DNA of 60,091 nucleotides, the filler included, from Dugesia japonica (lineage: Eukaryota), in assembly GCA_001938525.1 (NCBI GenBank). It is 4 parts of 4 records of this genome, joined end to end, with 100 filler letters (N's around TTAATTAATTAA, not from the genome) between each part and the next. Parts side by side here need not be neighbours in the genome. Positions count along the whole stretch, not along the records: positions 14,274 to 41,047 come from MQRL01608283.1; 3 more parts are not named here. The stretch is one strand, 5' to 3'. This document shows, piece after piece, positions 6,806-37,721 of this stretch; position 1 is the stretch's first letter; each line of letters begins with the position of its first letter. The notes beneath the pieces were generated by a model that was not told where the DNA came from, did no database searches, and saw only the letters and a list, made by a program, of their open reading frames with translations. Position numbers and translations under genes: made by a program.

Positions 6806-8873
6806 TACTTTATATTGTAAATATGTTATAGTTAAATTAAATTCGAGCACTTAAATTTTATTATATATGTTATTGATACTATTCAGTGTATTACGATATT
6901 TGCATTTTCAACATGATTGATTGATTATATTTATGTTAATTATTAAAACTTAGAATTGTAGTCTATCACTTGGCACTATAGAATCTGGAAGATGCTATAT
7001 GCCCAGCAGTATCAAATATTACATCAAGGTTTAAATTGCTATGCGGATAAAAACAAGCACATCCGTCACACTGCTGTATTTTTGAATTTTATATATTTGA
7101 TATTTTATTTTAGAAATTAATGATTTACTTTATATTGTTCAGATGAAATAAATAAGTAACTAGTGTGGCTATTTGTTTTGTGGCGTAATCAATAGTTAGT
7201 ATCACGAAAAACTCATGATAAATATGGGGTCATGAATGCAAAACGATTAAAAAGCACTGATTTATTGTTATAAAAAACTTTTATTTTAAAAATTTACTAA
7301 GTCCTTAAATAAAATTTGATGAATTTAAATTTAATAATTAAGCAAGACAGATAACCAGTAGTAATAGATGAACTGATGACTAATCTAATTAAGAATGTAG
7401 AACATAATTGTTAAGGAAAGCTCATAAATAATATACTAACAGCAGATCCATATATACACATATACAAACAAACACACAAGCTCATTCGGCTCAATATCAA
7501 TACAGCTGCTTAAATCAAACAATGGATTTGATAATTCAAATCAATCTGCGATTCAATAATTCAAGTCAATTTAACTTTTGTTATTATCTAGTTATTAATC
7601 TGACTTTTTACTAATTCTCAAATTTTAATGTTATTTTTAATTTATTGTATGATATATAATACTAATTTTTAAATTTTATGTATGATGTTTAATCCGACTT
7701 TTTATGTTATTGTTATTTTTTATTTATTTCATGATCTTAATCATATGTACAAATTTTATTATCTAAATTGCTAAACAAATTCGGATATTATTTTATAAAC
7801 AAATTCGGATTTTAATTAAATTAATATTATTATTTATTAACTTTATCTAGATAATATTGTATTATTAATTTTAATTATGTAAATATTTTTCATAAAAATA
7901 GAAAATCTTTATAAAATTAGAAAATTTTAGTAAATGTTTATGAATTTTTAATGAATTGTGGTATTATTTTTTTAAATATTTATGATTCTTGATAATTTGC
8001 ATACGTATCTCTCTAGTATAAATAGAGATCTTATTTTCATTTTTTTTGCCNNNNNNNNNNNNNNNNNNNNNNNNNNNNNNNNNNNNNNNNNNNNNNNNNN
8101 NNNNNNNNNNNNNNNNNNNNNNNNNNNNNNNNNNNNNNNNNNNNNNNNNNNNNNNGTGAATCTTTTATTTAATTGCATAAGGAACACTATATAGTATATT
8201 TATACGATATTGTTATATTTATATTAATCATATTAAGGAAAAAACGTATAAAATAATATTTGGATTTCGTATTTAAATTTTTGATAAAAAATTTGCGAAA
8301 TCCCAAATACATCTCAACATAATTAGAAATGGATAAAAATGAGTAATTGGATAGTACTAAAATATTTAGTACTATAATATTAAGTGTTAATGTAATTTTT
8401 GAGATTGTTTTTAAATATTCGTTCATGTTTTAATTTTTTTTATAAATATACTTTAGAAAATATTACTTAGTAACGAAGAAATATTAATACTGAATCAATC
8501 AATAATAGATGAAGTGAGAACGAATTTCGATCCTTTCAGGACCACAAATAAAATGATTGAATTTATTATAATTTATTAATATTTTTTTTTACATTTTTGT
8601 GTTAGTCTCTAACAATGCTTTTCAAATAAACAAAATTATTCTAGTCTGGATATGTAATTTAATAAATGAAAAATATTCAATGAAATAAATAACATAAAAT
8701 TACACCTTTAAGTACTGTGGTTTAACATTTATATTTAAATACGCAAATATTTTATTAATAGACTTAAATGATTTCAATTATTATTGATTATTATTAAGTA
8801 AATTTTTATTCTGATTTTAATAGTATAAAAATTATTATTAATTATAATTATAGTTTATGGAGATGAAAAAATG

Positions 8874-14273: not shown

Positions 14274-15356
14274 ATTATTATTATTATTATTATTTACAAT
14301 GAAAAATAAAAAAATATATACAAGCAAAACTGTGAATCAACAAATTTATTAACGAATAAAATAAATTAATAGTTATTATGTATTCAATTTGGATTTTCGT
14401 AACTTTTGACGGTTGTTGCTAATTGTGAATAAAACGTTCGATTTAGGATTTGCAGGAAATTTTATGAATGTGATAAAAATCCAACTGTTAATGNNNNNNN
14501 NNNNNNNNNNNNNNNNNNNNNNNNNNNNNNNNNNNNNNNNNNNNNNNNNNNNNNNNNNNNNNNNNNNNNNNNNNNNNNNNNNNNNNNNNNNNNNNNNNNN
14601 NNNNNNNNNNNNNNNNNNNNNNNNNNNNNNNNNNNNNNNNNNNNNNNNNNNNNNNNNNNNNNNNNNNNNNNNNNNNNNNNNNNNNNNNNNNNNNNNNNNN
14701 NNNNNNNNNATTTACTCACTAAAAATAAATGTATTCATCTATTGAAATAATAATTAATAGAATACTACATGTTATTGCTTTGATCAATGGTTATCGATAT
14801 ACTCTACCATATTATCTATAATTTTATCAATATTCATCGTCAAATTAAACAATGTTATTGTCGTTTATATTATTTAAAATTAATTAATCATACACACATA
14901 CATAGAAATAAAATATTTTCATGACATCATACGGTCAAAGGTTATACAAAAGGTAATTAATCACACCTAATATATAATCTAATGCATTACAAACTTTTTA
15001 CACACATAAATAGTTACTATATAAACCTCAACAATTTACAATATTTCATTATAGAAAATGCAAGAATCGAAAGATAGTGCAACGACCATTGGTTTCGAAT
15101 CGAAGAAGACCTACTACGACAAACTAATCACTTATTCGTTTCAAGTAGCATTTACTTTCATTAATAAAACTATTAAATTTTCATTTAGGAACAAGTAAAT
15201 GTACTCAAATATAAATATAGCTTTCAGTTAACAGACATTAGGAAGGCTGATCAAACGGCTATTAATGATATTATATCAAAATTTGACAATACCATGCCAA
15301 TAAAAGATTGTGCTTTCATTGATTCAAAGAAAATAATCATCAAAAAATATTTGATC

Positions 15357-15509
15357 AGTAGTGTATAAATGACGGCTTCCCATCAAGGTTGTAAACTTCT
15401 TTTATATACATATATGATCTGGGATAAAATAATGTATAATAAATATAAATAAACAACTTCTCTGGAAGCCGTCATTTACACACTACTTGGGTTGATGGTT
15501 TGAATTTTT
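15357..15509 (+). repeat. Left TIR of copy A with terminal hairpin (stem 15357-15380/15464-15487)
   Basis: AGTAGTGTATAAATGACGGCTTCC ... GGAAGCCGTCATTTACACACTACT, 23/24 paired; the whole TIR is the reverse complement of 22456-22608. Confidence 0.92.
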
Positions 15510-15624
15510 ATTTNNNNNNNNNNNNNNNNNNNNNNNNNNNNNNNNNNNNNNNNNNNNNNNNNNTTTACACACTACTTGGGTTGATGGTTTGAATTTTTAT
15601 TTTATTATTTTTTATTATTAGAAA

Positions 15625-16010
15625 ATGGATGATATTTTAGAAGATTTAAAAAAAGATCCAGCATTTATGAATGAATTAAAACAAAATTATACTAAAGGTT
15701 TTAATTCTTCATTAAAAGAACAAAATTTAATATTAAAAAATATTTACCCTAAATATAAATTATTTAAGAAGCTATGAATTTAGTTGCAGACACAATCTAT
15801 GATTTAGCAATAGAAGTTGAAACTTTAAAAGAAGAATTAGAGGAGGTAAATCAATATAATGAAGAAAAAATAAATATGATAATTTCTTCAAAGAAAACTG
15901 AAAAAGATGAAAATAAAAATAAAGTAATATGAAATTTACTTAGAAAATCAAAATAAAATCAAAACCAATACTTAAATAAAATTACTCTAGAAAATGTCTA
16001 TAGAAATAAA
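15625..16010 (+). pseudogene. ORF1, small coiled-coil protein of unknown function (frameshifted)
   Basis: MDDILEDLKKDPAFMNELK is homologous to MEDILEDIKQDPEFRKELK at 47574. Confidence 0.75.
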
Positions 16011-16166
16011 TACAAAAGAAATAATTATTATTATAAAAGATATTGATAATATAAATAAAAATGTGATAATCAAAAAATATAATTATATGTTTTATAATTA
16101 TATTTTATGTAATTATTTGTATAATAATTATTATTATTATTATAATTTATTTTATTAATAAAGAAA

Positions 16167-16973
16167 ATGGCCGCAGAAAACAAAAAAGATTTATGTGAAA
16201 ATGTTGTTGATTACATTAGTTGTGCAAATACCTTTGATTCAAAGTTGTTAAATAAATCTCAAAAGATTTGTTTAGCAGTAAAATATCAAGAACTTATTTT
16301 TAAAGAACCAAATTTAAAAGATTCAATTATAGCTAAAGAAATGNNNNNNNNNNNNNNNNNNNNNNNNNNNNNNNNNNNNNNNNNNNNNNNNNNATTATTT
16401 CTTTTTTTAAAATTTTTTAATATAAAAAATATATTAATTTTAAAAAAATTTTTTATTTATAGATATAAATTATAGATATATTTATAGATATATACTTTTA
16501 ACATAAATTATATATAAAACAAATTAAAGATTTGTTTAAAATATCAAGAACTTATTTTTAAAGAACAAAATTTAAAAGATTTAATTATAGCTAAAGAAAT
16601 GGGGATATCTGTTCAAACATTAAATAAAACTTTAAGAGAATTAAATTTAAAACCTGAGAGAAAAAGGTATGCAAGAGTAAAATATTCTTTTAATGATAAA
16701 TCACATCAATATATTAAAAATAATTATGGTGACTATGTTTTTAATATTAAAACAAGTTCTTTTGAAATTTTAGAAATTCCTACAAAAGAAAGTTTAACTG
16801 ATAAAAGAAATAATTTGGCATTTTCAAAATCAAAAATTTTGCATTCATCAACTATAAATAAATCAATAAACAAAAATCCAAAAAAAATAAATAATGAAAT
16901 TGGAGGTGGATATTTAGATGGAGAAGTAGATAATGAATTAAACAAATCATTAAACTTTAAAACCAAAACATAA
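16167..16973 (+). CDS. ORF2, predicted HTH DNA-binding protein (split by a gap and local duplication)
   Basis: DSIIAKEMGISVQTLNKTLREL HTH-like motif; homologue at 47034 on the minus strand. Confidence 0.65.
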
Positions 16974-17072
16974 GTTAACCATAGATAAATATAAACCAAA
17001 TACTAACCAAAACTCAAAATAAGAACCTTTAAGGTAGTAATTTTTTAAACAACCAAATTAATTCTCTATAAA

Positions 17073-17873
17073 ATGAGTAGGTTCGCAAGTGAAATGAGTT
17101 CCTCAAATATGAATTTTCAAAGACCTATGAGTTCTTCGACTTTAAATTTTAAATATCCTGTTTGTAACAAGACGTTTATAAATAACGCAGGGTTGTCCTC
17201 GCATATCCAATCTCGAACCTGCGCAAGATCGGTACACGATTATTACACATGTAAAATTTGTTTCAAAAGATTAGCAAGTGAAAAAGGCTTGCGATTGCAT
17301 AAAAACTCCTCAAATTGTGTAGTTGATGGCGGGTTCAGAGTTGACTTAAATTGGAATTAATGCAATTTAACATTCACTAGACAAAACCATGCAAGATCTC
17401 ATTTTAATAATGATTTACATAAAAAGGAAGTTTTGAAAGCAAAAGAAGAAGAAACTAAAAAATTATTTGATGAATTACCTAGAGATGAAGCAATTGATTT
17501 TGAAAAGAATGAAACAAGAAAATTATTTAAACATTTAAAAAATATAAAGTATTTTAAAATTGAATATTTTAAAGAAATTAAAATTGAATTAACTAGAAAT
17601 GTACAAAAATTAAACTTTAAACTAATAACCTGGTTTAAAAAAGAAATTACTAAAATTGTTGATATTTATTTTGATTATTCAAAAACGTTGATGTTACGAT
17701 TGAGTGTAAACTGTAATTCTACTAAAGAAGATGAGGAAAGAGTATTTAACTCATATTCAAGTAATGAAAGAATTACTATCAAAAGTGATGTAAAAATTAT
17801 TGTCGAAGAGTTATTAAATCAACTACAAAGATATATGGAAGATTAAGACCAAAATGAAAGTGGATGGATTTTA
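17073..17873 (+). pseudogene. pPolB N-terminal region (zinc fingers plus terminal-protein-like region), truncated
   Basis: Collinear with 46363-45470 (FTRQNHA, LPxxEAIDF, ERVFNSYS, NQLQR..ED..ESG). Confidence 0.85.
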
Positions 17874-18029
17874 GGTTCATTAATAATTTTCAAACAAGTA
17901 ATTGAATCTCAACTTTCCTTCACAAACCTTTTATCGTTGTTAAAAGATTCTAATTTTAATTTAGCAGAAACATGTTTTAATACTTCTGTATTATTTTGAA
18001 TATTTAAAAGTTTCTCAAAATTTATTCAT
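17868..18029 (-). pseudogene. N-terminus of fibre-like protein (truncated)
   Basis: Homologous to the ORF starting at 37722 (MNKF...NNDKRF...DSITCLKIIN). Confidence 0.7.
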
Positions 18030-18049
18030 TTTCTATAAAGATATTATAC

Positions 18050-18489
18050 TAAAGTAAATCTCTAAAGGCTTCATATAATTCTTCAATAATTTCGTCAAAT
18101 GTTTTGGAGCCCTTTGGAAAATTTATAGACTATAAAAAATATAAACATAATACTCCACAAATACTAGTTCCAAAAGGTTGAACTTGAATTTTATTCTAAG
18201 CGTTTACATGTTTTTCTATTTTTTTAAAAGGTTTTAAGCCATAAGAATCAAAATAATAACTATGGTGAAAAGCAATCCAATGAGTTCCTTTTTGATTTGT
18301 ATTTTGATAATTAATAATTATTGGAACTGACGACCACGGTCGCCACTTTGGGATTTTATCTTTCATTAATACTTCTAATTCTAAATCAGTAATTGAATAC
18401 AAATCAAAATTAGTTTTAGTATTTATTCCAAAGGTTTTTAGAAAATCTAATATCCCAAAGGGTCCCATACCATAGTTTACACAAGACAT
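18050..18489 (-). pseudogene. Adenain-like cysteine protease (one internal stop)
   Basis: GTHWIA (His), YYFDSYG (Asp), and after the stop QVQPFGTSICG (Gln/Cys). Confidence 0.9.
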
Positions 18490-18492
18490 TTT

Positions 18493-19161
18493 TTAATATG
18501 AGAAATTTTCTATATATAAAGAAATAGTTTCTCCATCAAAATTTATTGTATTATTATTTTCATCTATAACATTAAATATTAAAGAATCAATACATTTGGA
18601 GTTTAATCTTGAATAAATAAGAGTTGAAGGTCTTTCTATAATTTTAAAACCAAAACCANNNNNNNNNNNNNNNNNNNNNNNNNNNNNNNNNNNNNNNNNN
18701 NNNNNNNNNNNNNNNNCTTTAACTAAATTACAAGTTATATTTATCATATTAATGTTTAGAATATCAACTTAATTTTCTGAATAATATTTTCCTGGTGAAT
18801 ACTGGGAACCTTCTGGGCCTTTCGGTGAAAAACTTAAAATAGTATGAAAAAAAGATTTAACATCAAATTTTATTATATGATTCATTGTTAAATTAGATTT
18901 CGTTGTTGAAAGATCTGGGGTAATTACAATTCCATGTTCTTTTAATTTACTAGAGATTTCTTTAATTTCANNNNNNNNNNNNNNNNNNNNNNNNNNNNNN
19001 NNNNNNNNNNNNNNNNNNNNNNNNNNNNNNNNNNNNNNNNNNNNNNNNNNNNNNNNNNNNNNNNNNNNNNNNNNNNNNNATTCTGTATCTAATTCTATTG
19101 GAAATCTTAAATCAACTTTTAAATCAGACTCTTTACCAACAACTAAAAATTGACGAGACAT
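18493..19161 (-). pseudogene. Minor capsid protein (penton), frameshifted
   Basis: FPIELD N-terminus; INITCNLV...GFKIIERPSTLIY...IDENNNTINFDGETI C-terminus typical of Polinton pentons. Confidence 0.85.
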
Positions 19162-19189
19162 TTTATTTATAGAAAATATTTATTTTTAT

Positions 19190-20010
19190 AAACATTAAAT
19201 TTTTCTTTAGTAATTAACTCCTGATTTAATAATTCTTTACAAACAGTTTTATTTATTTATTCAATTTATTATGACCGGCTTTTTCAGCCGAAATTAATAA
19301 TGTTAATCTTTCAAATAAAGATATATGATCTGAATTTAAACCTTCACCTTTGATAATATCCTCTTGCATGGGACCCTCTGGGATTTCTTTTTCACCATCA
19401 ACACCTTTTTTAAGCTTTGGTATTTTTGTTGTTCGCTTGCGCTAACGACTGGAAGGAGTCTTTTTCCCGGTTAAAAATGTATAATATTTAGAACTAGGAT
19501 GAACTGTAATATTAAATTTATTTAAATAAATATTTTTTGCTTCTGGATCATTTCTTCCATTTCCTAAAATTAAATTCATTAACTCTTCAGAATAAGGAAT
19601 TAGTTCTTGGTTATTTAAAAAGTATTTCGTTCCATTTTCTTCAACTAAATATATTATTGTTTGTGAGCTTTTAAGATTAGGATAAATTATTTTTTGAAAG
19701 TTTTTATTATCAATAACGTCTGTTTCAAATATTGGTATATTTGTTGGAGATTTTAAAAATTATGTATTTACAATGGTACTTGAAAAGAATGGTATTCTAT
19801 TTTCAAAAGGGTTTTTGTAGGTTTTGTTTGGGACCCTTTGGGATTTAAATTTTCAATTGCTTTAATAGTAGGTAGTTATTGATTAGTTAAAGTATCTTGT
19901 AAAGTTCTTGATTCAATTACTCCTGTAGTAAATAAATTATCATAATCATCTTGAGCTTTAATTTATTCTATCAGAAATTTTATTCTTTCTGTTATTTATT
20001 CACTATCCAT
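19190..20010 (-). pseudogene. Conserved Polinton accessory/core ORF (degraded)
   Basis: C-terminal KGEGL...LFERLTLLISAEKAGHN resembles the 'L..RL.LL.A...AGN' motif of animal Polinton proteins. Confidence 0.6.
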
Positions 20011-20013
20011 TTT

Positions 20014-20603
20014 TAAAAGGATTATCATGAGAATTTTCCTAAGGTTTTAAATACAAATCATCACCTTATATTTTAACTTGAATGCTATTTTTAAAGTTTT
20101 TAGTAATCATTTTCAACTCTGAGTTTGGTAAACTATTTTTGAAATATTTATGAATTGCACATATTATAATTGCACAATATTATGAATTCCTTGATAGGGT
20201 TTTAAGTAAAGTCCTAAATCAGAATTAGTTTTATCTAAACCTTCTTTTTCTAATTCCCTCTGGTCGCGAGTGTTAATGAGTTCTTCTTTTTCAATTTGAA
20301 TTTCTAAATCTTTTTTCTTTAATTCAACTAATTCTGTTTTTTTTTGTTTTTTAATTGCATCTCTAGAATTACTTACTGTACTAACAATTCCAGTGGCAAT
20401 TCCAGCTATTGAAGCTAAGCCGGCAATTATAGCCGGTATTGCGGCTAGAAAAGCAAATCCACCTTCATGTTTTTTCCTAGTTTCTGTTTTATTTTCTCTT
20501 TAACTTGTTTACCAATACAATAGTTTTTACCATTAATTTTTACAAATTTACTTTTATTTGAATTTATCAAATCAATTAATTCTTGTTCTGTTATTGAAGA
20601 CAT
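20014..20603 (-). pseudogene. Adenovirus protein X-like membrane-active precursor
   Basis: HEGG|FAFLAAIPAIIAGLASIAGIATGIV followed by a coiled coil and GLYLKPY. Confidence 0.8.
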
Positions 20604-20759
20604 TTTATTTACTTTTAATTTGAAAAAAATAATTCAATTTCTCTTCTCCTCTCAATTTTATAGGTAGGAGGATTTTAAAGAGGTGGGAGCATTTTCAAAG
20701 AAGAGAAATCCTAGAGAGTCTTATAAATTACTCCTCTTACGTTTCAAATCCCAAAGTGT

Positions 20760-21536
20760 CCAATAAATCACTTACGTTTCGAAAAGATCTTCCATTAAAA
20801 TTCCAGCTTCTCTTTCTAAATAGTAATAATTATACTTAGTTTTCCAATGTAAATTTACATTATAATCATATTCCATTTTACTAGAAAAAATGTTACTAAA
20901 TAAATCATAATAAACATTATCTTTATCGGTTTTGTCTAATTTAAAAAATATAAAACAGTTGGAATTATTTCTAATAGAGTTTTGTCTAAATGAAAATAAG
21001 TTTGAGAAATATAAATTACATTACAATTTACATGTCTTCCTCTAGTAAAATAACTTTTTTGAATTTCTTCATTTTTTTCATTTAACAACATCAAAAATTA
21101 TTAAATTCTTTTTATCCTTGGATAATTTGTCACGAAGAATAATTTCATTTGATTTATTACTTAGAATTAAATTTATCATTCTTGAGATTTTTATTGAATA
21201 TTTTTTTATTGGGGCCCTCTGGGTAAACCATTCAATAACTTGTAAAGGAGTTATTAAAGAATCTGGAATTATATTTTGATGTTCAAAAATAAAAATAATA
21301 TCTTCTTTTATTAATCAATTTTCAAAACCATGATAAACTAACTGTATTTCAAATTGATTTATAGTTGTAGAATAAATTATTTAAGTATCATAATCTAAAA
21401 ACTCTGTAGTTAATAACATTTTCATTAACAAAACAATTTTACAGGAGCCGGAAATACCAATTATTAATAATTTAAAATTAGATGGGAAGATTTTATTATT
21501 AATGATATTTTTATTTTTATTCCAAATTAAAGCCAT
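20760..21536 (-). pseudogene. A32/FtsK-like DNA packaging ATPase
   Basis: LIIGISGSCK (decayed Walker A), NLIIFDV (Walker B), FTRGRHVNCNVIYISQ, IRNNSNCFIFF. Confidence 0.9.
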
Positions 21537-21604
21537 TTTTATTTAATAAAAATTTAACTAATTATTTTCGTAATCAGAAGTTATTTTTTCATAAAAGAAT
21601 ACAT

Positions 21605-22036
21605 CTAATTTTTCTCTTTGTTTATGTTTTTTTCAAATGTATGTTTCTTTATATAATCATCATCCATATAATAATTATCTAGTTTATTTGCAACTAGATT
21701 TAATATACTCATACTATATGAATTCATATTTTTAAAATTAAAATGATTAAAATAATTAATTAAAACTGAAGTTTCTTCTACTTGTTCATCTTCTCCAACC
21801 CATAAATAAGTATTGCCAGTTAACCACTTCCAAAATAATTCTGTTGGATTTCTTAAATTTACAGCTGCAAGGGATTTCTTTAAATATTTATTTTCTTCTG
21901 ATTCTTTTTTAAATTCTTCTTTTAATTCATGTTTAAATTCTTCTTTTAATTGTTGTTTAATTTCTTCTTTTAAAGCATTTTTTGATTCTTCATTTAAATT
22001 GCCATTTAAAATCAAATCAAAAGAATTTTCACTCAT
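21605..22036 (-). CDS. ORF143, unknown protein with N-terminal EE/K coiled-coil repeats
   Basis: Intact 143-aa ORF, first gene inside the right TIR and co-oriented with the morphogenesis arm. Confidence 0.6.
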   Translation of the reverse strand: MSENSFDLILNGNLNEESKNALKEEIKQQLKEEFKHELKEEFKKESEENKYLKKSLAAVNLRNPTELFWKWLTGNTYLWVGEDEQVEETSVLINYFNHFNFKNMNSYSMSILNLVANKLDNYYMDDDYIKKHTFEKNINKEKN

Positions 22037-22455
22037 TTAATTTAAATTTCATTTTTTTAAATTATTTTTTTTAGAATTTTTTTATATGACGATATGGATT
22101 ATCATTTCTAGTTTATATATTTACAAAAATTTAATTAATAAACATTTTATCTTTTTATTAATTTAATTAACAAGATAAATTATTCTATACGCTACTTTAT
22201 TTTAAAAATTAAAAAATTCAACTTTAAGCTACTTATTATTAAAAATAGAATATTTTCAAACTTTAAAAATATCAAAAAAATTCAAAAATTTTGTTTGTGT
22301 TTGTTGATTTTGACTTTGAACAGGTCTAATGGAATTTTGTGTTCGATCAAATGGTTTTATTAAAGATTCATATTGTCCATTAACATCTCTTTTTGAAGTT
22401 TTAATGTTTTTCAAAAAATCTAAAATCAAAATCTAAGTCTAAAAATCTTAAATTC

Positions 22456-22608
22456 AAAAATTCAAACTATCAACCCAAGTAATGTGTAAATGACGGCTTC
22501 CCGAGAAGTTGTTTATTTATATAAACTATAAGTTATTTTATCGCAGATCATATATGTATGTGAAGGAAGGTTATAACCTTGACGGAAAGCCGTCATTTAC
22601 ACACTACT
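22456..22608 (-). repeat. Right TIR of copy A with terminal hairpin (stem 22478-22501/22585-22608)
   Basis: Reverse complement of the left TIR, about 17 mismatches in 153 bp by manual count. Confidence 0.92.
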
Positions 22609-23900
22609 AATATCAGCTAATATTTTTATCTTGCCGACAGAGTGCTCCAAAAAGTTTTTTTATTTACAACTTGACCACAAATTGTTTCTTCAGATAATTT
22701 ACTTATTATTGAATTTCTAAAATTATTGCTATATTCCAAAATAATTTTCACTGATTAAAGTAAATTTTTAAATCCATTAGCTTCTAGACCGTCCGTAAAT
22801 CAGAAAAGGAGGATATAACATTGAAGACATTTCACCAAGAGTAGTTAGGCGTGCAAAGGTAGCCTCCAGTAATAGGTCTCCAGCTTTTTTTATTGTAAAA
22901 TAATCAGTAAGAGTCTTTATTTTTTCCTTTGTTGAACTATCTACATCTATTGGATTTTTCTGAACCAAAATAGATGTGCTTCTGACTTTAATTTTTACAC
23001 CGAGAATAATTGCGTATAAAAACCCTTCGTGAAACCCCCAGTAATTCTCAATATTTTCTCGCAATCTGAATGTTTACATTTAGCTATCTGTCCATCTTCA
23101 ACCCTTAAACAGTGTTGCCAAATATCTAAAGTACTCTTTGATAAATATTCTCTGTAAGCCATGGGACTAGAAATTATTTTAAAAAATTGTAAAATCTTTA
23201 ATAATGTATTACATTAAAATTACAGAATAATTTTAATAGTTTGTTGGGATTTAAAACAAAAAATAATTAATTGATAAAGACATTTTATGCTTAAAATAAT
23301 TTCTACTAGTTGATCTATATAATTTCCAAAAAATCTAGATTTAAATTATTAATTCCTGACTTATTCTTCGAAAAACTTACAAGCACACTAATATAAATTA
23401 TGCTGTAAGAAATATTACACGTTAATTTAATTATAATCATAATATTGATTGCAAAAGTTTTGTATGGAGCTACTATAATTGTACTCAGAATATGAAAGTT
23501 TCCTGTAATCTTTAGAGTGCATTATTTTTGGTTTAATATACTCTCTTTGCAATAATATATTTAACTAACGAATGATTTCTTGCCTTAAAGTTAATGCTCA
23601 AGTATTATCTTGAAAACTACTGATAAGATTAGTTTAATAGTTACCCCTGCTGTTTTCGTTAAGATGATTGTTTGATGGACTGTTAAATTAATTATTATCT
23701 TTTTACAAAAATATTATGTTTTCATTATTTATTTCTATATGCTGGATTTAATTTTCTTTTTCAAATTTGAATAATTATTTTACTTGTTGGCCGTTATTCT
23801 TATCCTTCTGGCATCATGTTTGTGTTATTGTTACGAGTCTTAAGATAAGTTATTTAGTCATTTTTGGTGGTTGAAAAAAGTTGAAATGTAATTTAGAAAT

Positions 23901-24640
23901 GTGAAGAGAATTGTTAACATCGTGATTGTTGATAGAATAAATCAAGAATTTATTGGTGGAATTGATATGTTTAATACACTTAATATTCAATTAACAATGC
24001 TTAATATATTGGATTCAGAGAACATTAACAGCAAATTCACTGATAATGATCGTTTTAAGACTGCATTGGCAGCCTTTAAGCCGGAGGATAATGATTTAAA
24101 AGATATACTTCTAAAGTTTTCAAATATATTTATGGCAGATACTTTTGATCTTGGAAAAACACATGTTATAAAACATTTCATTCCAACAGTTGTTGATTCT
24201 ATTCTACAACAACCTCGACGTCTACCAATACATCTTAAACAGAAAATTGATGAATGGATTGAGCAACTGATAGAAAGCGATATTATCAAAGAAAGTAGAA
24301 GTGCTTGGAACTTTCCGATGATAATTGTTTGAAAAAAGAATGTCACGATCAGAATGTGTCAAGACTTTAGAATGTTGAATGATTTTGTAAAAAAATTTTC
24401 ATTCACAATACCAGATACACAAACCTTATTTGATCAGCTTTTTGGTTGTAAATTATTTTCAACTTTGGATGTGGAACAAGCTTATTATCAAGTAGAATTA
24501 AATGAAGATAAGATTAAAACGGTATTTTCAACACAAAATTGACAATTTTGCTACAATCGTATACCATTCGAGTTATCAACAGCTCTAGATACATTTCAGA
24601 AATTGATGCATATAATTTTGGATGGGATTTCATTTAAAGA
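23901..24640 (+). pseudogene. Gypsy reverse transcriptase fragment
   Basis: DLGKTHVIKHFI, SRSAWNFP, MCQDFRMLN, FSTLD..AYYQV, IPFELSTA..TFQK. Confidence 0.85.
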
Positions 24641-24744
24641 TATATATAATTGAATATAAATTTTTACAAAAAACAAATTTATTTTCATAGTTTTGTTTTG
24701 TGAATAAATCTTTTATGGAAATAAGTTTTGACATTAATGATCCG

Positions 24745-24930
24745 ATGAGTACTTCAAACTCATGGTTGCAGCAGTAAACATCGATGCGATCAAATAGAGA
24801 TTGTTACCAAAAGTAATTTGCAGAGACGATGATGTAGAAAAGTTTATTAAACAGTGTGACATATACTTCGAGGCGAAGAACATCGTTATTAAGAAAGATC
24901 AGGAGCGCTTGATAACTTGTATACTTGAAA
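24745..24930 (+). pseudogene. Gag-like N-terminal fragment
   Basis: LLPK...DDDVEKFIKQCDIYFEA. Confidence 0.45.
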
Positions 24931-25044
24931 TAAGATGATTTAAGTAACATTGATGTACCCCGTTGAATCTAAACAGAATTAAACAATAAATTATAAAATA
25001 ACTCTTACTTTATTACAATTATTTCAAGAATACATAGCATTGTT

Positions 25045-25250
25045 TACACCAATACTGTTCCGTTTTCATTAATCTGAATTTATTTTTCAAATACTCCATA
25101 AATGAGAACATATGCCGATTTTGTTAAAGCTTTGCAAACTTGATTTTCAATCTTAAATTTCCTTGTTGAGGTAGTTGACTCTGATTTATATCAAAATCTG
25201 GAGCAAGAACAAATGTAAAGAAAGGATAATTATCCTTAAAATCTTTAAGC
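25045..25250 (-). pseudogene. Polinton major capsid protein C-terminal fragment (second family)
   Basis: YPFFTFVLAPDFD...GNLRLKIKFAKAL...VLIYGVF..IQINENGTV matches the Maverick MCP C-terminal pattern. Confidence 0.7.
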
Positions 25251-25407
25251 TATTTTCATACCAAAAGAACCAATACGTTTACGAATAGGCAAAACAAATC
25301 TCCCTATTGTTCGTAACCAACCAGATCCATATTGTTTTCCAAGAAAGTAAGCTAATTCTCCACCTGCTTGACTAGTACTGTACAATGATACAATATCTGG
25401 ATTCATG
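25250..25407 (-). pseudogene. Gly-rich amphipathic Polinton protein N-terminus (gene following the penton), joined by deletion to the MCP tail
   Basis: MNPDIVSLYSTSQAGGELAYFLGKQYGSGWLRTIGRFVLP. Confidence 0.6.
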
Positions 25408-25890
25408 ATTAATTTTTCTAAAATGTAACGTTAAATGTGTTTTTGAATCTTCAGCAAAGTTGACTAGTTTTCCACTATCATCTCGTAAATTGATTTCTAT
25501 ATTGTTTATATATGACGAGGAAATAGGTAAATACATCGAATGATCAACAATTATTTGTATTACCTCATCATTCTCATGTTCTTCTATCCATACTGCGTTC
25601 AATAAGGGAACATTAACATCTCCAACAATTATAGGTTCAATAATACTACAATATATAAATATTTCATTATAAAACTTTAATATTCTAGGTTTCTTATTAC
25701 TTTTATATAGCAGTTGTTTATCATTAAATTGTATTCGAGTATATTGCGATTCTTTTAATCCTAATGTTTTTGTTAAGATTTTATCTAATTTAACACTTTT
25801 AGTTCTACTTGCTGATGTAAATTCAAATATTTCATCTTGCTTTAATGAAAATGTTTTAAATTACTTTGAAAGGTGTTTCTTAAAATAGTC
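25372..25890 (-). pseudogene. Penton (second Polinton family), C-terminal part
   Basis: FIYCSIIEPIIVGDVNVPLL...MYLPISSSYINNIEINLRDDSGKLVNF...LTLHFRK. Confidence 0.85.
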
Positions 25891-26631
25891 ATNNNNNNNN
25901 NNNNNNNNNNNNNNNNNNNNNNNNNNNNNNNNNNNNNNNNNNNNNNNNNNNNNNNNNNNNNNNNNNNNNNNNNNNNNNATAAAAATATTTAATTTTTATT
26001 TTTTCAATGGATTCATCGTTTTTAAAGCCAAGAAAAAATGTTTTATCTCCAAAACTTTTACTAGCATCAAAAACTAATGTATTATCTTACTTACATATTC
26101 ACCACTAAAATATGAAAATCCCTTTATAGTTTCCTGATTTTCAAATACTAAACTGTGGTATGTAATATCACTAGTAAAGACTAAAACATTTTCTTTCGAT
26201 AATTGTATAACTGTTTTCTTGTTATTTTTATATTTGTCTTGAGAATTAAAAAATTTTAAAAAAACTAAAAAATGACATTATTTTTATTAAATTCATCAAA
26301 TTACCAAATTAAATATTGCAAAAATTTATGACGTCATAACCAACCGACAGAAAAATTCAAATAAATCTTATCAAATCCGATAATTAATTCTCTTTCCACA
26401 CATACCAACCTCCACCTCACGAAAAAAATTTTTAACACACTTATACTACTTACAAAATAAACCAATCAAAAACAAGCCCTTAAAATAAGAAATCAAAACA
26501 CATTCGACAACTATCATCTTTACCATCACATTACCTCTCCAACAAGCCATCAACCAACAAATTCCATCAATAACATAAAAATCTACAACCAAATCAAAAA
26601 CCATCCACGATCACAAAAATCATGGTTAAAA

Positions 26632-26700
26632 AAACGCAGCTCAATCGTAATGTGTTTCCGAGCCCTACGGGGGGAGGGGAGCTCGATAACTGCTTAAAAA
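26632..26700 (+). repeat. ~70-bp dispersed motif (copy 2)
   Basis: Matches 1124-1191. Confidence 0.6.
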
Positions 26701-26704
26701 TAAT

Positions 26705-26935
26705 TGTGCTCGAATTTAGGCTCATTGCAAAATTGTGCCAGTTTGTCACTATCAATCTACTGCTGCACATAAAAACTGTAATTTAAATCTAAGTATAAAA
26801 AGTTTATTTGTACCCATATATTTTCACAATGGAAGTGGATGTGATTTTCATTTAATTATCAAAGAATTAGCAAAACAAACAAGTTTATATTGTCGCGCAA
26901 ATCAAATAAAAATAATACCTAAAACTGAGATATAA
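26705..26935 (+). pseudogene. pPolB fragment (EndoVII-like/Exo II region)
   Basis: AAHKNCNL...VPIYFHNGSGCDFHLIIKEL...IKIIPKTE. Confidence 0.8.
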
Positions 26936-29582
26936 TATAAAAATGAAGAGTTTAAATATTGAGATTTTAGAAGAGAATAATTTGAACCTGTTTTATTTTG
27001 AATAAATATTATTTTAGTAATTTATATTTAACATGGCATCAGGAGCAGTATTCAGTATATTTTTATCAAATTTATTCAACATGGTTCAGAAGCTGCCAAG
27101 TTTTCATATTGGAGATGATTCTGCAAAACACCTACAAGAATTCAAGAACCACATTCTTAATTTAAAGATTGAAGATGGTAATACAAAATTAATTGTTATA
27201 CTAAAGAAGTTATGAATTCAGCTCATATCATCAATGGACAATGANNNNNNNNNNNNNNNNNNNNNNNNNNNNNNNNNNNNNNNNNNNNNNNNNNTGTTAT
27301 ACTAAAGAAGTTATGAATTCAGCTCATATCATCAATGGACAATGAGCCGTATCAAAGTTTTAAAAAAAAGCAAAAACACTGATTTTAGAGAATCACTCAG
27401 AATTCGCTCAAAATAAGTCTTTGGTCCAAGCGAGAATAAAACGACACTATTAGATTGTGTGGTAGAGTCAGATGTAATGTATTATAATTTATTATGTGAA
27501 TTGAGAAAAAGTAACAAACGGATTAAAGTTTTCCAAAGAACAGAAAGAATGTACTGTGCAAATAAATCGCCTATGAAAATCATTGGGGTTGCGAAAGTTG
27601 AATTAGTGATTAGAGAAAAAGAATTGGCACTAGAATTTAAAGTAGTGGAAAACGTTTTCCCACAGATTATCATTGGAAATAAATCGATGAAAGCACACGT
27701 TATACAGATTGTGCCACAGGATGACTGGATATATATCAGGAATCAAATTTGTATCAAAAGTTTGTGATGAAAGAACGGAAAACTAACAAGCACAAATCTT
27801 AAGAGTCACGATTCAGGTGCTACAAAAACGAGGCTCAGTATTGCTCTTTACGTATCAATTTGGACGAAACTGTAGTTTTAGAAACGAATAAATAATATTT
27901 TGGATGTGAATCAATTGACTGTGATGAATTTAAAATTAAAGAAGGAATCTTTGTAGGTTATAAAGATAAACTAGCAAATTTGGATATCTTGTCAGCTAAT
28001 TCGATAGTATCGGTTGAAAAAGACTGAAAGATTCCTATAAGACTTTACAATTTATCTGATTCTGAAAGAAAAGTTTATAAAGGCCNAAGAATGAGTAGTT
28101 TAAAAATCTGGGAAGGAAAAAAGCGAGTTCATCAGAATTGTTTATTCAGACAAATTTTTGGTGTCTCGTGTAAACGGATTGGTTGATCGAATCGAAAAAG
28201 AAAATAGCATTCCTTTAGAACATATAAAAGGCTAAGAGACTAATAATAAAATATGCTACTATATTTAGTAAATGCGACTAGGATATTGGTCAATGTAAAA
28301 AACTAAAGCATTATATTTCCACTAAAGAAGAAGCGCCGATATACGAATACCGACAGGACTTGAGGATAAAGTTGATAATTTAGTTGCAGATTTATTGAAA
28401 AAAAAGATAATCATGAAAAGGGAAAGCCTATAAAATGCACCTTTAGTGTGTATCACTAAAGCCAATGATGACATAACATTTTGTGCCGATTATTGGCAGT
28501 TAAACCTAGTCACAATCAGACCAATATATCCAATTCCAGAAACTTGTCAGCTTTTTGATGCACTGGGTGGAACAAAAATATTTAGCCTTTTAGACTTATC
28601 TAATGAATATTATAATGTCAAAGTAAATGAGGCGGATAAACAAAAAAAGGAGAGGGCAGTATGAATTTAATAGAATGCCATTTGGCCTATGTTCAGCTTC
28701 AGCAACATTTCAACGACTTATGCATCTGATATTGCAAAATGAAAATTGAGAACAAAGTCTTATTTATCTGGACGCTGTTTTGATATTTGGAAACTCTTAT
28801 GAACAACATCTCAGTCGATCGGAAGTAGTTTTACCTAGAATAGAAGAATCAGGAGTTAAATTAAAACCTTAAAAATGTAAAGGAAACATAGAATTACGGC
28901 TAAAAAGATCCAATAAAGTAGAAAAGTTCGAAATCGGTCAGAACCAGGATGTTTCTCAGATCTACATTACTTTATAGCTTTCTGTAACTATTATAGAAAA
29001 TTTATAAAAGATTTTGCGTATGTCGTTCTACCTTTAGAAACTATACTGAAACAAGACAAACAAAAAATAAATTGGAAATACAGCAAAAAACCAATAAATT
29101 GGGATGCTCAAGGAAAAGAAGCATTAAAAAAGATACAGGAACTTCTAACAACAGCTCCAGTTCTAGTTTATCCTCTAAAAGAAGGTATGTTTATATTAGA
29201 CACAGATGCAAGTCACAGTCATATTGGAGGAATCTTAAGCCAAGTTCAAAATGGAGATGNNNNNNNNNNNNNNNNNNNNNNNNNNNNNNNNNNNNNNNNN
29301 NNNNNNNNNNNNNNNNNNNNNNNNNNNNAATTATTAGCTGTCTACGTTTTTGTGAAACAATTTAGGCATTATTTATTGGGGAGAAGTTTCAAAATAAGAA
29401 CTTATCATAAAGCATTATTGTGGTTAAAAAGTTGGAAAAATCCAAATACATCACAGTATTTTACTTAGATCACAGAATTAGAGGAGTATGATTTTGATAT
29501 TAAACACCGACCTGGCCGAATACACATAAATACAGACTATATGAGCCGAACGGGACGTGAACAATGTCAACTCAGACATCAA
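26936..29582 (+). mobile_element. Decayed Gypsy element (LTR end/PBS, gag, protease, RT, RNase H)
   Basis: ...aaCA TGGCATCAGGAGC PBS-like site at ~27034; FCADYWQLN, FSLLDLSNEYY, MPFGLCSA, YLDAV, FILDTDAS, HYLLGRSF. Confidence 0.85.
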
Positions 29583-30530
29583 GAGTGTTTAAAATCTAAT
29601 TTTTTGTTATATATCGATGCAAATAATTTATATGGTCATTCAATGAGTCAAGCTTTACCTTATAGTAATTTTAAAAAAAGCGGGAGAGAAGCAATTGATT
29701 GTTTGAATCGAAATCCAATGCAGGTATTATCATTTATGTTTAACAAAGCAAACGAAATACATAATAATGAGTATAATGTTGGTCTCGCTTTTGAAGTTGA
29801 TTTACAATTTAAAGATAATGCAGCAATAATAGCTATTNGGAAATATCCAATAGCTCCCAAAAAAAAGAAAGATAAATATAAATGAATTATCTAATTATCA
29901 AATAAATTTATTAAATCAATTGGGACAAAAGTTTTTACAAACAGATAAATTGGTTTTAGATTTAAATCCAAAAAGGAATTACGTTGTATATTGGAAAAAT
30001 CTATAATATTATCTTCAAAGAGGAATGATTGTAACAAAGATTCATAATGTAGTTTCATTTAGAGAAAAACCTTGGTTGAAAGAATATATAGATTATAAAA
30101 CAAGAAAAAGAACTGTTGCTACAACTGACTTTGAGAAAGATTTAAGAGAATTGTAATTAACTCCTGAAGATTTAACTAAGCACAAAAAAGTAATTGATTA
30201 TTTTACAGATGAATTAGGAGACAAAATAATGAAAGAATTTGTGCTTTAAAATCAAAATCATATTGCTTCATAAGTGAGGATAAGAAAGAGAGAGGTAATT
30301 AAAAAGAAAATGAAAAATAAAGGAACAAGTAATAGTGTTGTTGATAAAGAAGTACATATGATTAATTATATAGACGCAATAAAGAACGGAAATTTACAAT
30401 ATAAAATTCATTTTAACATTAAATCGAGATTACAGAATGCTTATACAGTAAAAAAAATTAAATATCTTTAAATTCTTACGATGAAAAAAGATTTTATAAT
30501 AACNATATAAATAACGAACCATATTATAAT
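29583..30530 (+). pseudogene. pPolB polymerase-domain fragment
   Basis: YIDANNLYGHSMSQALP, FEVDL, YPIAP, FREKPWLKEYIDY..RKR...FEKD, LKSKSY, SYDEKRF. Confidence 0.85.
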
Positions 30531-30784
30531 TAAATTTAATTATTTAAAAATGCCTGTTTCTAATAAGAAATCATTTGTTGAAATTTATAATATCATTGCA
30601 TCAATATTTTTATTTCAACAGAATAAAATATTTTCTAACATACCAGAAATATTAAATGCTTTTACATTAGAAAAAAATTATAAAATTAAAAGAGCTTCTT
30701 ACTTTAAGTATATACAATATTTAAAATCAGCTATTTATTTATTAAAGTTTTTATATTCAACACAAAATAATGCCGGTTTAATTA

Positions 30785-31650
30785 TTAGGTTGGTAAGAAA
30801 ATAACTGCGGTTTTTAACATATAAATTTAAAAGTAAAAATCTCAGAAAACATAAAAAANNNNNNNNNNNNNNNNNNNTCCCAACGAGAAATAAGTTTGTT
30901 TATGTAAATAGAATAGAAATCCTCTATTCTGGATTCGACGATTTCGAGAAAGGCATTTTTAGCATCTTTGTCTTTATGTAAGACTTTCTTTTGAAGAAAA
31001 TTGGAGACATGATAAAAAGATGATAGTCGGTTGGCGACAGGTCTGGGAACTATAGTATATGAGGCAGACTTTCAAATCTTAAATCATTTAGTTTCTGCAG
31101 GGATAGTTTTGCGACGTGTGGACAGGCATTGTCGTGAAGAACAATGGGGTGTTTTCTGTTAACTAGTGTAGCCCACATAGATCTCAATTTGCGGTGACTT
31201 TTGTCAGTTTTTTGACAAAAGTTTTCTACCGTCATAGTTTCACCTTGATTTAAAAAGTTGTAATGAACCAGACCGGTTGTGGACCACCAAACCGTCATCA
31301 TTGTCTTCTTTTGATGCAATTTTGGCTTTGGATAATAATATGATGCCTTGCCTTTGTCCAACCATTGCGATGCCCGCTTTCTATTGTCGTATACAATCCC
31401 TTTTTTGTCGCAAGTCATAATGCAATCAAGAAATGGATTGGTTTTATTTCTAAACAGATTCACGGAGCCGATCTCGTAATGGCGGTTTTTCTGAAAACTG
31501 TTCAATTCATGTGGAACGCATTTATCGAGCTTCCATACTTTTCCAAGTTGATGGAGGTGGTATAAAGCTGCCACATGACCTACGCCTAAATTCTTCACCA
31601 GCTTCCAAGTTGTTGCGCGTGGACCGGCTTCGATCATTACCTTCAAATTT
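30785..31650 (-). mobile_element. Mariner (DD34D) transposon 3' portion with one TIR
   Basis: TA followed by ttaggttggtaagaaaataactgcggttttt TIR (Hsmar1-like); VPHEL, TCDKKGIVYDN, HDNACPH, PDLSPTDYHLF. Confidence 0.9.
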
Positions 31651-31959
31651 TAATAAAAATTATTTAGAAAAAATTAAAAATAAATGAATACTCAAGATAA
31701 ATACTCAAATAGCTAAAATCTGAACAAAGTCGAGATGAATTAAGTATCCCAAAAATTCGAGTATTGTTTATTATAGTAAAAGTAGTATAAATAATTATAT
31801 AAATAAAAGAAACGAAGATAAACGAATAGATGAGAACAAGGATGTAAAATAAAATTTTTACAGATTTTTAAAGAAAAAATTGATTAAAGGCCAACCAGAG
31901 ATGATCAATGACATAAATTTAGAAGATGACAGTGAAATTCTATAAATAGAAGAGATGAA

Positions 31960-32995
31960 ACGACAAGAGATAAGTTATGACCAGATGCAAGCTAGACCAA
32001 GTTTAACGGTTAAAATATAAGGGGTAAAAGTCGATTGCTTGTTAGACACTGGAGCCAGAGTTAATGTAATAAGTTTGAGAATATTGGAAAAATCGAGAAA
32101 AGTCAATATATTAAAATGTTAAGACAATTTAAGATTTGCAAATAAAAATATTGATTAACAAGCAAAATGAGAATTTAAAGAAAGTTATAATGATTTATAA
32201 AAGAAATATTCATGGTAGACAATTGGGATATTGGCAGAACAACAATGACAGAAAATCAAATAATCAGTAATGGAAAACCAAAAAATAGAAACCAATGCAT
32301 TTAGAGAATAAGATCAATGAAGCTATCAAGATTTTCTTTGACAATGGCATTATTAGGAAGTGTAATTTACAATGGAACACTCCATTAATATGTGTATGGA
32401 AAAAAAGAAAAGACAGACGTTATATAATGTCTAGATTTAAGAAAACTGAATGTAATCACAAAACGAGAGGCATGTCCAATGTAGAGGAAATACTAGACAA
32501 TTTGAGTGGTGCAATATATGGTGCAACTATCAAGCTCTGTTACATAAAGATTCACGAGAGAAAACAGGATTTTCTACGAAAAATGAACAGTATTGTTTTA
32601 CAAGAATGCCCTTTGGTATAGTTACAGCACCTTGAACGTTTCAAGAATTAATGAGAAAATTATTAGGAGGCTTGAGAGGAACGATGGTATGCATGGATGA
32701 TATATTGATTTCGGAAGACATATTATTGTAAAGAACTTGAGAAGCTTTTTAAGAATATGCAATTGCTATAGACTGTTTATCAATAATTACTCAAAGAGAG
32801 CTAGAAGCTTAGAAGAGCTATGTGTAAGTAATAATAAAAAACTTGTGTGGTCTGAAAGTTGCGATAAAGCTTTTAATGAGATGAAAATGGAATTAACAAA
32901 AGAAACGATATTGAGTTTTCCAGATATTAAAAAATGTTTGTACAAGATACATATGAGAGTTTTGATGCCATTGGAGCAGTTTTATTGCAAGTAAA
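31960..32995 (+). pseudogene. Gypsy protease-RT-RNase H fragment
   Basis: CLLDTGARVN, WNTPL, MPFGIVTAP, CMDDILI, LRSFLRICNCYR. Confidence 0.85.
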
Positions 32996-33404
32996 TAGAT
33001 AGTAGCAGAGTCGATCATCCTCCACCCGTTGACGCAATTAGATTATGACATAAGTGATCCAGTATTTTTCTAATTTAAATGTATTTTTGTTTTTTCATGT
33101 GTATTTAATTTAGAAAATTTTTTAAGGCTTTTTANNNNNNNNNNNNNNNNNNNNNNNNNNNNNNNNNNNNNNNNNNNNNNNNNNNNNNNNNNNNNNNNNN
33201 NNNNTGGTTCAGGTGAATTCGATCGAATATTTCCTTAAAAATGGTTAATTTAGTTTACTGGACAATTTAGTCAATTATTTAACCAATTTAGGTAATATTG
33301 GTCAATTATTTACTCGTGGTGGTTAGTTTTTGATGGTTTTTCGCTGGTTATGGCCAATCATTTACTCATAATGGACAGTTTTAAGTGAATTTTAATTACT
33401 AAAG

Positions 33405-33548
33405 GAAATATCATTATAAATAGGGATAAAAGACGTTAAACATTTTTATTAATGAAATAAAATTAAAAACAAGTACTTATTATCAGTTGTTATCATGAAT
33501 AATTGTAATCTCTAATGAGAATTTTCTTTAAATAAAATTACCTCAAAT
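33405..33548. repeat. ~143-bp inverted repeat, left arm (partner 34966-35108)
   Basis: Near-perfect reverse complement of 34966-35108. Confidence 0.85.
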
Positions 33549-33589
33549 AAAGTAACTCAAATTTGACTTGATAATCCTTTCAATTCTAA

Positions 33590-34495
33590 ATACTAATGGT
33601 TTTGGAATCACTTTTAATTCCTGTTCATAGAAATTTTCTTGAATGATGTTTTCTTCATAGTCTTTAATTACGTACATGAATGGATATTGTTTTGTGTTGA
33701 TTTTTGATATTTGAAACACTTCATCGCTCCAATTATTATTGAAATTCTTGATTGAATGGAGAAACTGATATCTTTGAGATTTTATTTTTTGGCCTTTTCA
33801 ATGTTTTTGGTTGCTAACGAGATAACCATAAATTTATTTGATTATTTGATGCCACATCAACTGATCTTGTACCTTTTAAGCTTTTGTGTGATGTATGATT
33901 ATAACTATGAATTAGTTTTGGTAATACATGAATCCAGGTTTTATTACCAGTATGTACAAAATACTTTTCAATGCGTCTCTCAATGTACGATTAAATCTTT
34001 CAACATGTGCTGCTTTGTATTGTGAAAATACCGAATAATGGTTTATTTTAAGATGAGAAATAACATTTATTGACTTTCGAGTTGTAAAATTCCTTTCCTA
34101 AATTAGTTTGCAAATTATCAGGATGTCCTTCTTGAAACATTAATTTGATTACAGTTTCCATTTCATCGGAAGATTTAGTTTTAACTGGAATAGCTCTTGC
34201 AAATCTGCTAAATACATCGATACATGTCAAAATGTACTTGTATCCTTTATTAATTTTTGAATATGGAATCATTTCCATCAAATCCATTTGACATAAATCA
34301 TCAATACCAGATATTTTCTATGCTCTAGTTGGAAATATTTTCAACATCGGTTTGTTTAGACTGTATGCTAACTGGTTTGATAGCCACTTTTGTGTTTTGT
34401 TTTTTGATATTTGTGCTGCTTTTCTCAACTTTTCTACGCCTTTGAATCCTTCTGGGTTTTTTGGGTTTGTCACATATTGTATTGATTTTGTCCAT
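33590..34495 (-). pseudogene. Maverick/Polinton retroviral-like (rve) integrase
   Basis: DLCQMDLMEM, YILTCIDVFSRFA, LQTNLGKEFYN, AAHVERFNRT, WSDEVF, FYEQEL. Confidence 0.9.
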
Positions 34496-34499
34496 TACA

Positions 34500-34846
34500 A
34501 CCAGCTGATGTAAATTTTATAACTAAATTGGAAAGTAAATTCATTGTTTATTGAAAATTCACTAGATCTAATGCTGCTAATGCTATTGGAAGTAAAGCAG
34601 CTAAAAAACCACCTCTTTTTTATACAACACTTTTCTCATTAATCTTTTGTTTTTCGTATTTACTATTGATAATAAGGAATTGTTGTGCTTTTTCAATACT
34701 AGTGTTTTGGTTTTGCTTATATTTACATTTCCACGAACTACATTTACAATAATTTCTAGCAAATCATTAATAAAAAAAGATGGAAATGCTTGTAAAATCT
34801 TCTTTCTCGATTCCTTTGGAGACTTGAGCAATGCAGTAAAAAACAA
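34500..34846 (-). pseudogene. Polinton protein X-like ORF upstream of the integrase
   Basis: EIIVNVVRGNV..LKKH; after a frameshift, KRGG|FLAALLPIALAAL. Confidence 0.8.
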
Positions 34847-34859
34847 CTATTTTAAGTAC

Positions 34860-37720: not shown

Positions 37721-37721
37721 A

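Follow-up and report, generated by a model that had tools for sequence, protein, structure and literature searches.

Decayed Polinton-derived elements in the window

The window analyzed here is a stretch of 60,091 nucleotides, filler included, from the genome of Dugesia japonica (assembly GCA_001938525.1). It consists of AT-rich, repeat-laden DNA with many short gaps. Two elements within it, designated A and C, end in long hairpins (Table 1). These hairpins are identified from the surrounding sequence as the termini of decayed Polinton-derived elements with a Beta-type polymerase, on the basis of the polymerase class, the left-end genes shared by A and C (69-86% nucleotide identity), the remnants of a protease and a packaging ATPase, and the AGTAGT start. 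This start is described as a common Maverick end motif in the accessible text of PMC8097293. It is carried by A, and the AGTAAT end of C differs from it by one change.

Table 1. Coordinates of elements A and C and of their features in the window
Feature	Position	Strand	Remarks
Element A	15357..22608	.	Decayed, internally deleted Polinton-like element, 7.25 kb
Left TIR of A	15357..15513	+	Hairpin plus about 25 non-hairpin bases; runs into assembly gap
Left terminal hairpin of A	15357..15487	+	131 nt; 24-bp arms 15357-15380 and 15464-15487; begins with (AGT)2 end motif
Broken ORF near left end of A	16146..16973	+	Also in C; Pfam HTH_10 (helix-turn-helix) matched weakly, below cut-off (E 0.044)
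Polymerase N-terminal remnant of A	17049..17873	+	
Maturation protease remnant of A	18073..18492	-	E 6e-15 to an ORF of related locus L007
Packaging ATPase remnant of A	20775..21542	-	Fragmented; Pox_A32 E 0.02-0.03, below cut-off; tblastn E 5e-5
Right TIR of A	22452..22608	-	137 of 157 columns identical to left TIR
Right terminal hairpin of A	22478..22608	-	131 nt; oriented towards its end in the way the left hairpin is
Element C	41168..47817	-	As far as traceable; opposite end outside window
Polymerase gene of C	42873..46363	-	Beta-type (pPolB2); broken by stop 43949-43951
Terminal hairpin of C	47680..47817	-	138 nt; outer end 47817; 23-bp arms, to 28 with wobble pairs

The polymerase of C is 24-29% identical to its relatives (best E 4e-33), with at most 38% identity among the best matches listed, and its C-terminal piece aligns at E 2e-26. 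We infer its membership of the Beta (pPolB2) class from an HNH/endonuclease VII-like insertion (within 44345-44734), which deviates from the motif of the relatives. Pfam Endonuclease_7 is matched by four of the five relatives scanned, one of them above the cut-off. In the accessible part of PMC10748475, the HNH insert of pPolB2 is reported only for nematode and oomycete elements.

Element A is more reduced. At approximately 17870, its similarity shifts from the polymerase of C to the protease region, marking an internal deletion. The ORF of L007 that matches the protease remnant is one that we take to be a protease from its motifs. The deletion junction unites parts resembling two different copies, and A may have arisen by recombination between two insertions or may be old.

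Both elements resemble the Beta-class pPolB Polintons/Mavericks, as these are described in the parts consulted of PMC8502044 (adintoviruses) and PMC10748475 (pPolB2). The features found include a protein-primed B-family polymerase with an HNH-type insert (in C), TIRs (in A), an (AGT)2-type end, and protease and packaging ATPase remnants (in A). In contrast to those elements, A and C are broken. The length of A is below the 13-25 kb of Polintons, and the Polinton target-site duplication of 5-8 bp is lacking around it; no 6-bp duplication is present at 15350-15356 and 22609-22614, the flanks TTGATC and AATATC being alike at three of six positions. Searches with Pfam and the ORFs of related loci detected no retrovirus-like integrase inside A or C. 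Likewise, no major capsid match was obtained in either element with Pfam and 369 ORFs of related loci, the gene being possibly divergent or deleted. On present sequence evidence, A and C are filed as Polinton-derived remnants rather than intact members.

Other remnants surround these two elements. A third copy of the family lies beside C at 37125-41000, with a protease, accessory ORFs and polymerase pieces (39535-39834, 40727-40987); it is 69-80% like A and C, and its termini were not found. Pieces of additional Polinton-like elements, from the capsid region and the polymerase among others, are present at 25136-30423 and 48454-48732. The end of C lies about 640 nt from the polymerase fragment of another element, so that such insertions are clustered in the window. 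Outside A and C, the minus strand carries a fragment of an rve integrase (33546-34516), which, together with a small ORF, is enclosed by 144-nt inverted repeats that are 98% alike (33405-35108). These repeats belong to a different family, with more members at 34847-36912, 39931-40650 and 54405-55247. Decayed pieces of reverse transcriptase/RNase H, mariner-type transposase and IS4/piggyBac-type transposase are found at 23892-33000, 31050-31646 and 50716-50928.

Terminal hairpins of elements A and C

The first-pass annotation of this DNA had described inverted repeats at three element ends, and these are indeed the top three local inverted repeats of the window. Three repeats of this class (arms of at least 22 bp, at most two mismatches, spacer of 40-300 nt) occur here, against one in total over 20 block-shuffled windows. 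When folded as single strands, all six strands of the hairpins are predicted to be far more stable than expected (z -5.9 to -8.7), with none of 200 shuffles equally stable. Each TIR was found to begin with an imperfect palindrome of about 100-160 nt, and the final base pair of its predicted fold is the terminal base of the element. All three hairpins are therefore real, but the two of A are the TIRs of one element, and the independent cases in the window number two rather than three.

The lengths quoted for the loops (83, 83 and 82 nt) require 24-bp arms for A but 28-bp arms for C. With uniform 23-bp arms, the loops measure 85 nt at both ends of A and 92 nt in C, and exact conservation of loop length was rejected on these figures. 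The accompanying statement that the loops of A and C share little sequence stands: comparison of these loops gives z 0.85 and 1.32, and they are unrelated in either orientation (z 0.14-1.32). The arms of A and C, meanwhile, are 70-87% alike (3-7 differences in 23 nt).

A 39-nt repeat that spans the gap at 15514-15563, next to the left hairpin of A, is an assembly overlap. It lies outside the hairpin, except that the last 13 nt of the inner arm are copied in it. No Rfam match was obtained in the window or in four related loci (L014, L010, L043, L003), indicating that the terminal hairpin is not a known RNA family. The 60-kb window contains no additional arm pair and no solo module.

Hairpins at the ends of related elements

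A polymerase alignment search of GTDB genome contigs yielded 54 loci, of which 53 (418,828 nt) were analyzed. Ends were sought by a motif-free repeat scan, by reading upstream from the polymerase in 36 loci, and at 1726 end-motif sites in the window and the 53 loci. A flush terminal hairpin of 104-159 nt is present upstream of the polymerase in five of the 53 loci (L014, L003, L004, L010, L043), with predicted folds at z -3.9 to -22; every hairpin end found there adjoins a pPolB element, and the loci were chosen by pPolB. The hairpin of L014 (5614-5742, 129 nt) has an AGTAGT end and lies 150 nt before an intact polymerase of 1248 aa. Those of L003 and L004, which were missed by the motif scan and found by reading the upstream DNA, have an implied length of 132 nt, as the contigs begin 9 and 11 nt inside the outer arm. 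Contig starts of this kind may occur with free linear DNA or variable flanks. These three hairpins fold as continuous rods. The remaining two have ACACAC ends: L010 (9383-9541, 159 nt), a nearly perfect palindrome in an element that has an integrase, and L043 (2544-2647, 104 nt).

No hairpin was found at three candidate ends with an end motif (L009, z +0.36; L049, z +0.04; L018, z +0.60); they lack a confirming second TIR, and L018 is the least sure of them. L011 was left out of both groups owing to an N gap 110 nt in, and no terminus was identified in the other 44 loci. One further match of the motif scan, in L007, sits in an AT-rich repeat array. A degenerate two-arm pattern derived from the window gave no match in GTDB genome contigs, and the polymerase relative P0018 gave none in plasmid or phage collections. 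The geometry that had been called conserved thus recurs as a flush hairpin, but only roughly in size, and it is not universal.

A quick tree was built from 42 loci, element C and two relatives (45 rows), with 11 short loci dropped. In it, hairpin ends occur in three places and element C sits on a long branch. The hairpin-less L009 and L018 fall in a supported clade with the hairpin-bearing L010 and L043. This suggests that the fold is dispensable or has been exchanged between elements.

Several other features of these loci were recorded. The motif GTTCTG occupies positions 20-25 or 21-26, counted from the end, both in ends with a hairpin and in ends without one (L009 at 1088, L010 at 9383, L011 at 90, L043 at 2544), and the first 25 nt of L011 resemble the arm of A. 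Hairpins with no recognized end motif lie shortly downstream of the polymerase in L021 (13356-13418), L034 (13610-13672) and L028 (1979-2105). Large inverted duplications, of which 0.7-1.9 kb are seen at 88-98% likeness, lie downstream of the polymerase in L033, L041/L047 and L042; one contig among these carries two oppositely oriented polymerase genes. L010 also has a palindromic repeat in its flanking DNA (8046-8213) that is unrelated to the ends. All 54 loci with Polinton-type polymerases come from prokaryotic MAGs. The flanks of some are eukaryote-like (LINE reverse transcriptase, microsatellites), which suggests mis-binned host or viral DNA.

Variation in arms, loops and orientation

The two stem sequences quoted by the first-pass annotation are correct, and their arms have changed together: both arms differ at 5 of 23 columns between the left end of A and C, and at 3 of 23 between the right end of A and C. 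The same is seen in L014/L003 (6 of 20 columns), L014/L004 (6 of 18) and L010/L043 (7 of 28), and the near-identical pair L003/L004 has none in 18. Between L014 and L003/L004, the loop is kept and much of the stem is replaced, the reverse of the pattern in the window. Changes in both arms are also expected from conversion, however, and alone they cannot separate selection for pairing from copying of one arm onto the other.

An asymmetry is shared by all five outside hairpins: under two different end motifs, the inner arm carries one extra unpaired base at position 20. This base is absent from the arms of A and C. The centers of the palindromes, with 30 nt trimmed per arm, are self-complementary in five of eight termini. 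None of 1000 shuffles was as good for L014, L003, L004 and L010, and one was for the left end of A, which is only weakly self-complementary. The centers of the right end of A, C and L043 are no better than shuffles (782, 59 and 273 of 1000 as good), and a fully palindromic loop was rejected as a general feature. In the eight termini, mismatches turned into G.T wobbles favor the strand with the 3' end by 18 to 6 (p 0.02); this bias is weak evidence, since it depends on the alignment and the termini are related.

The flip/flop loop orientations that the first-pass annotation had raised were not seen. Orientation is uniform in five of five outside ends and two of two ends of A, where random flip/flop would give such uniformity about once in 32; the ends are few, and assemblies can collapse minority forms. 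The HNH insert was considered as a marker of hairpin-bearing elements and rejected, as its motif is intact in the hairpin-less L009 and L049; it is degenerate in C.

The observation that started this analysis is therefore partly confirmed, being real with the corrections given, and its interpretation is partly supported. The argument that selection acts on the structure gains from two other pPolB lineages, unrelated arms, both-arm changes between distinct elements and the shared asymmetry, but the both-arm changes are ambiguous when taken alone.

Comparison with known systems

The closest published parallel is with the virophages of Halocafeteria seosinensis and PLV subtype 4. As described in the accessible part of a preprint (bioRxiv 10.64898/2026.07.28.741278), these have terminal palindromes for which hairpin priming is proposed. 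Both there and here, a palindrome occupies the tip of the TIR in an integrated polinton-related element. The Halocafeteria palindromes are tight (52 nt in the example, with gaps of at most 10 nt in the screen) and mostly accompany non-pPolB genes. Ours, in contrast, are 104-159 nt long and mostly imperfect, and all of them adjoin pPolB elements, the outside loci having been selected by pPolB. Spacers in the window are approximately 80-90 nt, and only L010 is tight.

The predicted hairpins of the window, at 131-138 nt, are within the size range of parvovirus terminal hairpins (120-600 nt, PMC6537627). The outside families also share with the left end of MVM a one-base arm asymmetry and, in the five assembled ends seen, a single orientation. 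They differ in that the element here is integrated and double-stranded and has its own polymerase, and in that its arms bear a protein-priming repeat. The telomeres of Streptomyces are likewise protein-primed, and the terminal bases of their 3' overhang can pair with an inner copy (PMC5449611, consulted in part). Unlike the present elements, they are bacterial, with an internal origin, several short palindromes and Tap/Tpg proteins, and they are taken here purely as an analogy.

Further likenesses are partial, judging from the sections seen of each source. The PolB of bidnaviruses derives from Polintons, but according to the source their ITRs do not fold into hairpins (PMC4061559). Casposons are prokaryotic elements, and internal palindromes are present in the TIRs of some of them (PMC4046053). 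Mismatches in poxvirus telomere hairpins are functional (PMC8956199), but those ends are covalently closed and occur in flip/flop forms.

Possible functions of the hairpin

The features described above suggest that the palindrome acts on single-stranded DNA, probably on the strand with the 3' end. Among the roles offered by the first-pass annotation, a fold-back in displaced single-stranded DNA fits best. We tentatively favor a version in which a displaced strand, by folding back its 3' end, would locally restore a duplex origin at which protein priming can start. Strand-displacement synthesis or excision would free one strand, and its 3' end would pair with the inner copy, so that a short duplex terminus is rebuilt locally and a search for the other TIR, 7-20 kb away, is spared. 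The element's own polymerase, through its terminal-protein domain, would start at the 3' AGT or AC repeat and open the hairpin. The inner arm could also template the repair of a frayed 3' end, keeping the arms alike. In the outside families, the inner copy may be barred from serving as an origin or an integrase end in duplex DNA by its offset of one base.

This fold-back origin would leave the loop uninverted and need no nicking enzyme. Terminal-protein domains are known in polinton pPolBs (PMC11071308), and short terminal repeats, of the type linked to jumping-back initiation (PMC8097293), are retained on both hairpin arms. It is the combination of a single orientation, no required nicking enzyme, a retained repeat and a terminal-protein domain that leads us to favor this reading. 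It is also consistent with the flush hairpins in three polymerase lineages, the both-arm changes, the position-20 base and the wobble bias toward the 3' strand. Among protein-primed systems, Streptomyces telomeres set a precedent for the folding of a 3' overhang and for repair by fold-back (PMC5449611). Weighing against the fold-back origin are the hairpin-less ends of L009, L049 and L018, the window arms that lack the position-20 asymmetry, the limited occurrence of self-complementary centers, and the demonstration in Streptomyces that repair does not act on the long-range 'rabbit ears' pairing (PMC5449611).

The geometry of these ends places a paired 3'-OH opposite a template, facing the element body, where any polymerase could be expected to extend it. 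This favors self-priming in the manner of parvoviruses, which is the main rival of the fold-back origin, though not a likely explanation. The folded 3' end would prime the second strand to give a hairpin-closed duplex and an inverted dimer, which a nuclease encoded by the element (the HNH insert of the polymerase, or the integrase) would resolve asymmetrically, with the one-base offset keeping only one arm active. A precedent exists in MVM, where the arms differ by one base (GA/GAA) and only one of them is active as an origin (PMC1185569), and the same model was proposed for the Halocafeteria virophages and one PLV. Hairpin sizes in or near the parvovirus range, the near-perfect palindrome of L010 and the rods of L014, L003 and L004 also agree with it. 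However, Pfam detected no Rep/NS1-type endonuclease among the 140 ORFs of the window, the HNH motif is not distributed in step with the hairpin, flip/flop forms were not observed, and the Halocafeteria palindromes mostly go with replication genes other than pPolB. A hybrid confined to a subset of pPolB Polintons appears doubtful: the hairpin would prime by a rolling-hairpin route, the one-base asymmetry would let only one arm resolve, and the resolving nuclease would possibly be a domain inside the polymerase.

The fold may instead be incidental. The likeness of the A and C arms beside unrelated loops, and the arm-like motifs at ends with no detected hairpin (L009, L011), are what would be expected of two inverted protein-binding sites that work in duplex DNA as origin or promoter sites, perhaps for a small HTH-like protein, and are kept alike by gene conversion, which would account for the both-arm changes too. 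We consider this unlikely, as L014 and L003 share conserved, self-complementary loops between arms that have diverged at many positions, and a wobble bias on one strand would be meaningless in duplex DNA. Similarly improbable is a role as an excision or integration substrate, in which each end would restore a double-stranded att site for the integrase, either as a cruciform or on single-stranded DNA of the lagging strand. The hairpin does stop exactly at the element boundary, no pairing of two distant TIRs would be needed, and the standard model has a single-stranded element excised after TIR pairing (bioRxiv 10.64898/2026.07.28.741278 and PMC4046053, in the parts available). Against this, A and C contain no detected integrase, and the wobble bias marks one strand per end, whereas hairpins of both the 5' and the 3' type would be needed to excise one strand. 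The hairpins could also be a non-functional by-product of template switching that recurs as replication begins and leaves copy-back duplications of the end. This would suit the patchy distribution on the tree and corresponds to the accidental annealing that the Halocafeteria authors give as their alternative; it is very unlikely, as the hairpins are always flush, measure 104-159 nt, occur at both ends of A and have the same position-20 base in two families. The idea of a self-contained mini-element (MITE) of about 130 bp, also raised by the first-pass annotation, and that of an assembly fold-back artefact were rejected, retaining only a negligible probability. Palindromic repeats unrelated to ends do exist in flanking DNA, as in L010, and the left hairpin of A adjoins an assembly gap, but no solo copy was found in the window or the 53 loci, including their 1726 motif sites, no target duplication surrounds any of six modules, and the hairpins occur in independent assemblies with different sequences.

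Implications for Polinton biology

Judged from these comparisons, a long imperfect terminal hairpin is a recurrent feature of pPolB-encoding Polintons, though some lineages have it and others do not. We found no published report of terminal hairpins in pPolB Polintons in literature searches on Polinton and adintovirus ends. The portions covered of PMC8502044, PMC10748475, PMC8097293, PMC11296320 and two more preprints mention no hairpin or palindrome inside the TIR, and the word hairpin gave no match in the adintovirus and nematode Polinton papers among them; the supplement of PMC10748475 gave no match for AGTAGT. Most spacers here are long, and the majority of such ends would escape a screen that limits the gap to 10 nt. 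Palindromes of the kind recently described from protist virophages are thereby extended to pPolB elements.

Polinton excision and replication, through a long-range TIR panhandle and protein priming, have been modelled rather than shown in the literature covered. The hairpins suggest that some Polintons may use a folded single-stranded end when copying their DNA. The hybrid route, if true, would mean rolling-hairpin replication by a nominally protein-primed polymerase in an integrating virus. The recurrent flush hairpin would offer a small substrate of 130 nt with which protein priming, self-priming and integrase recognition could be told apart.
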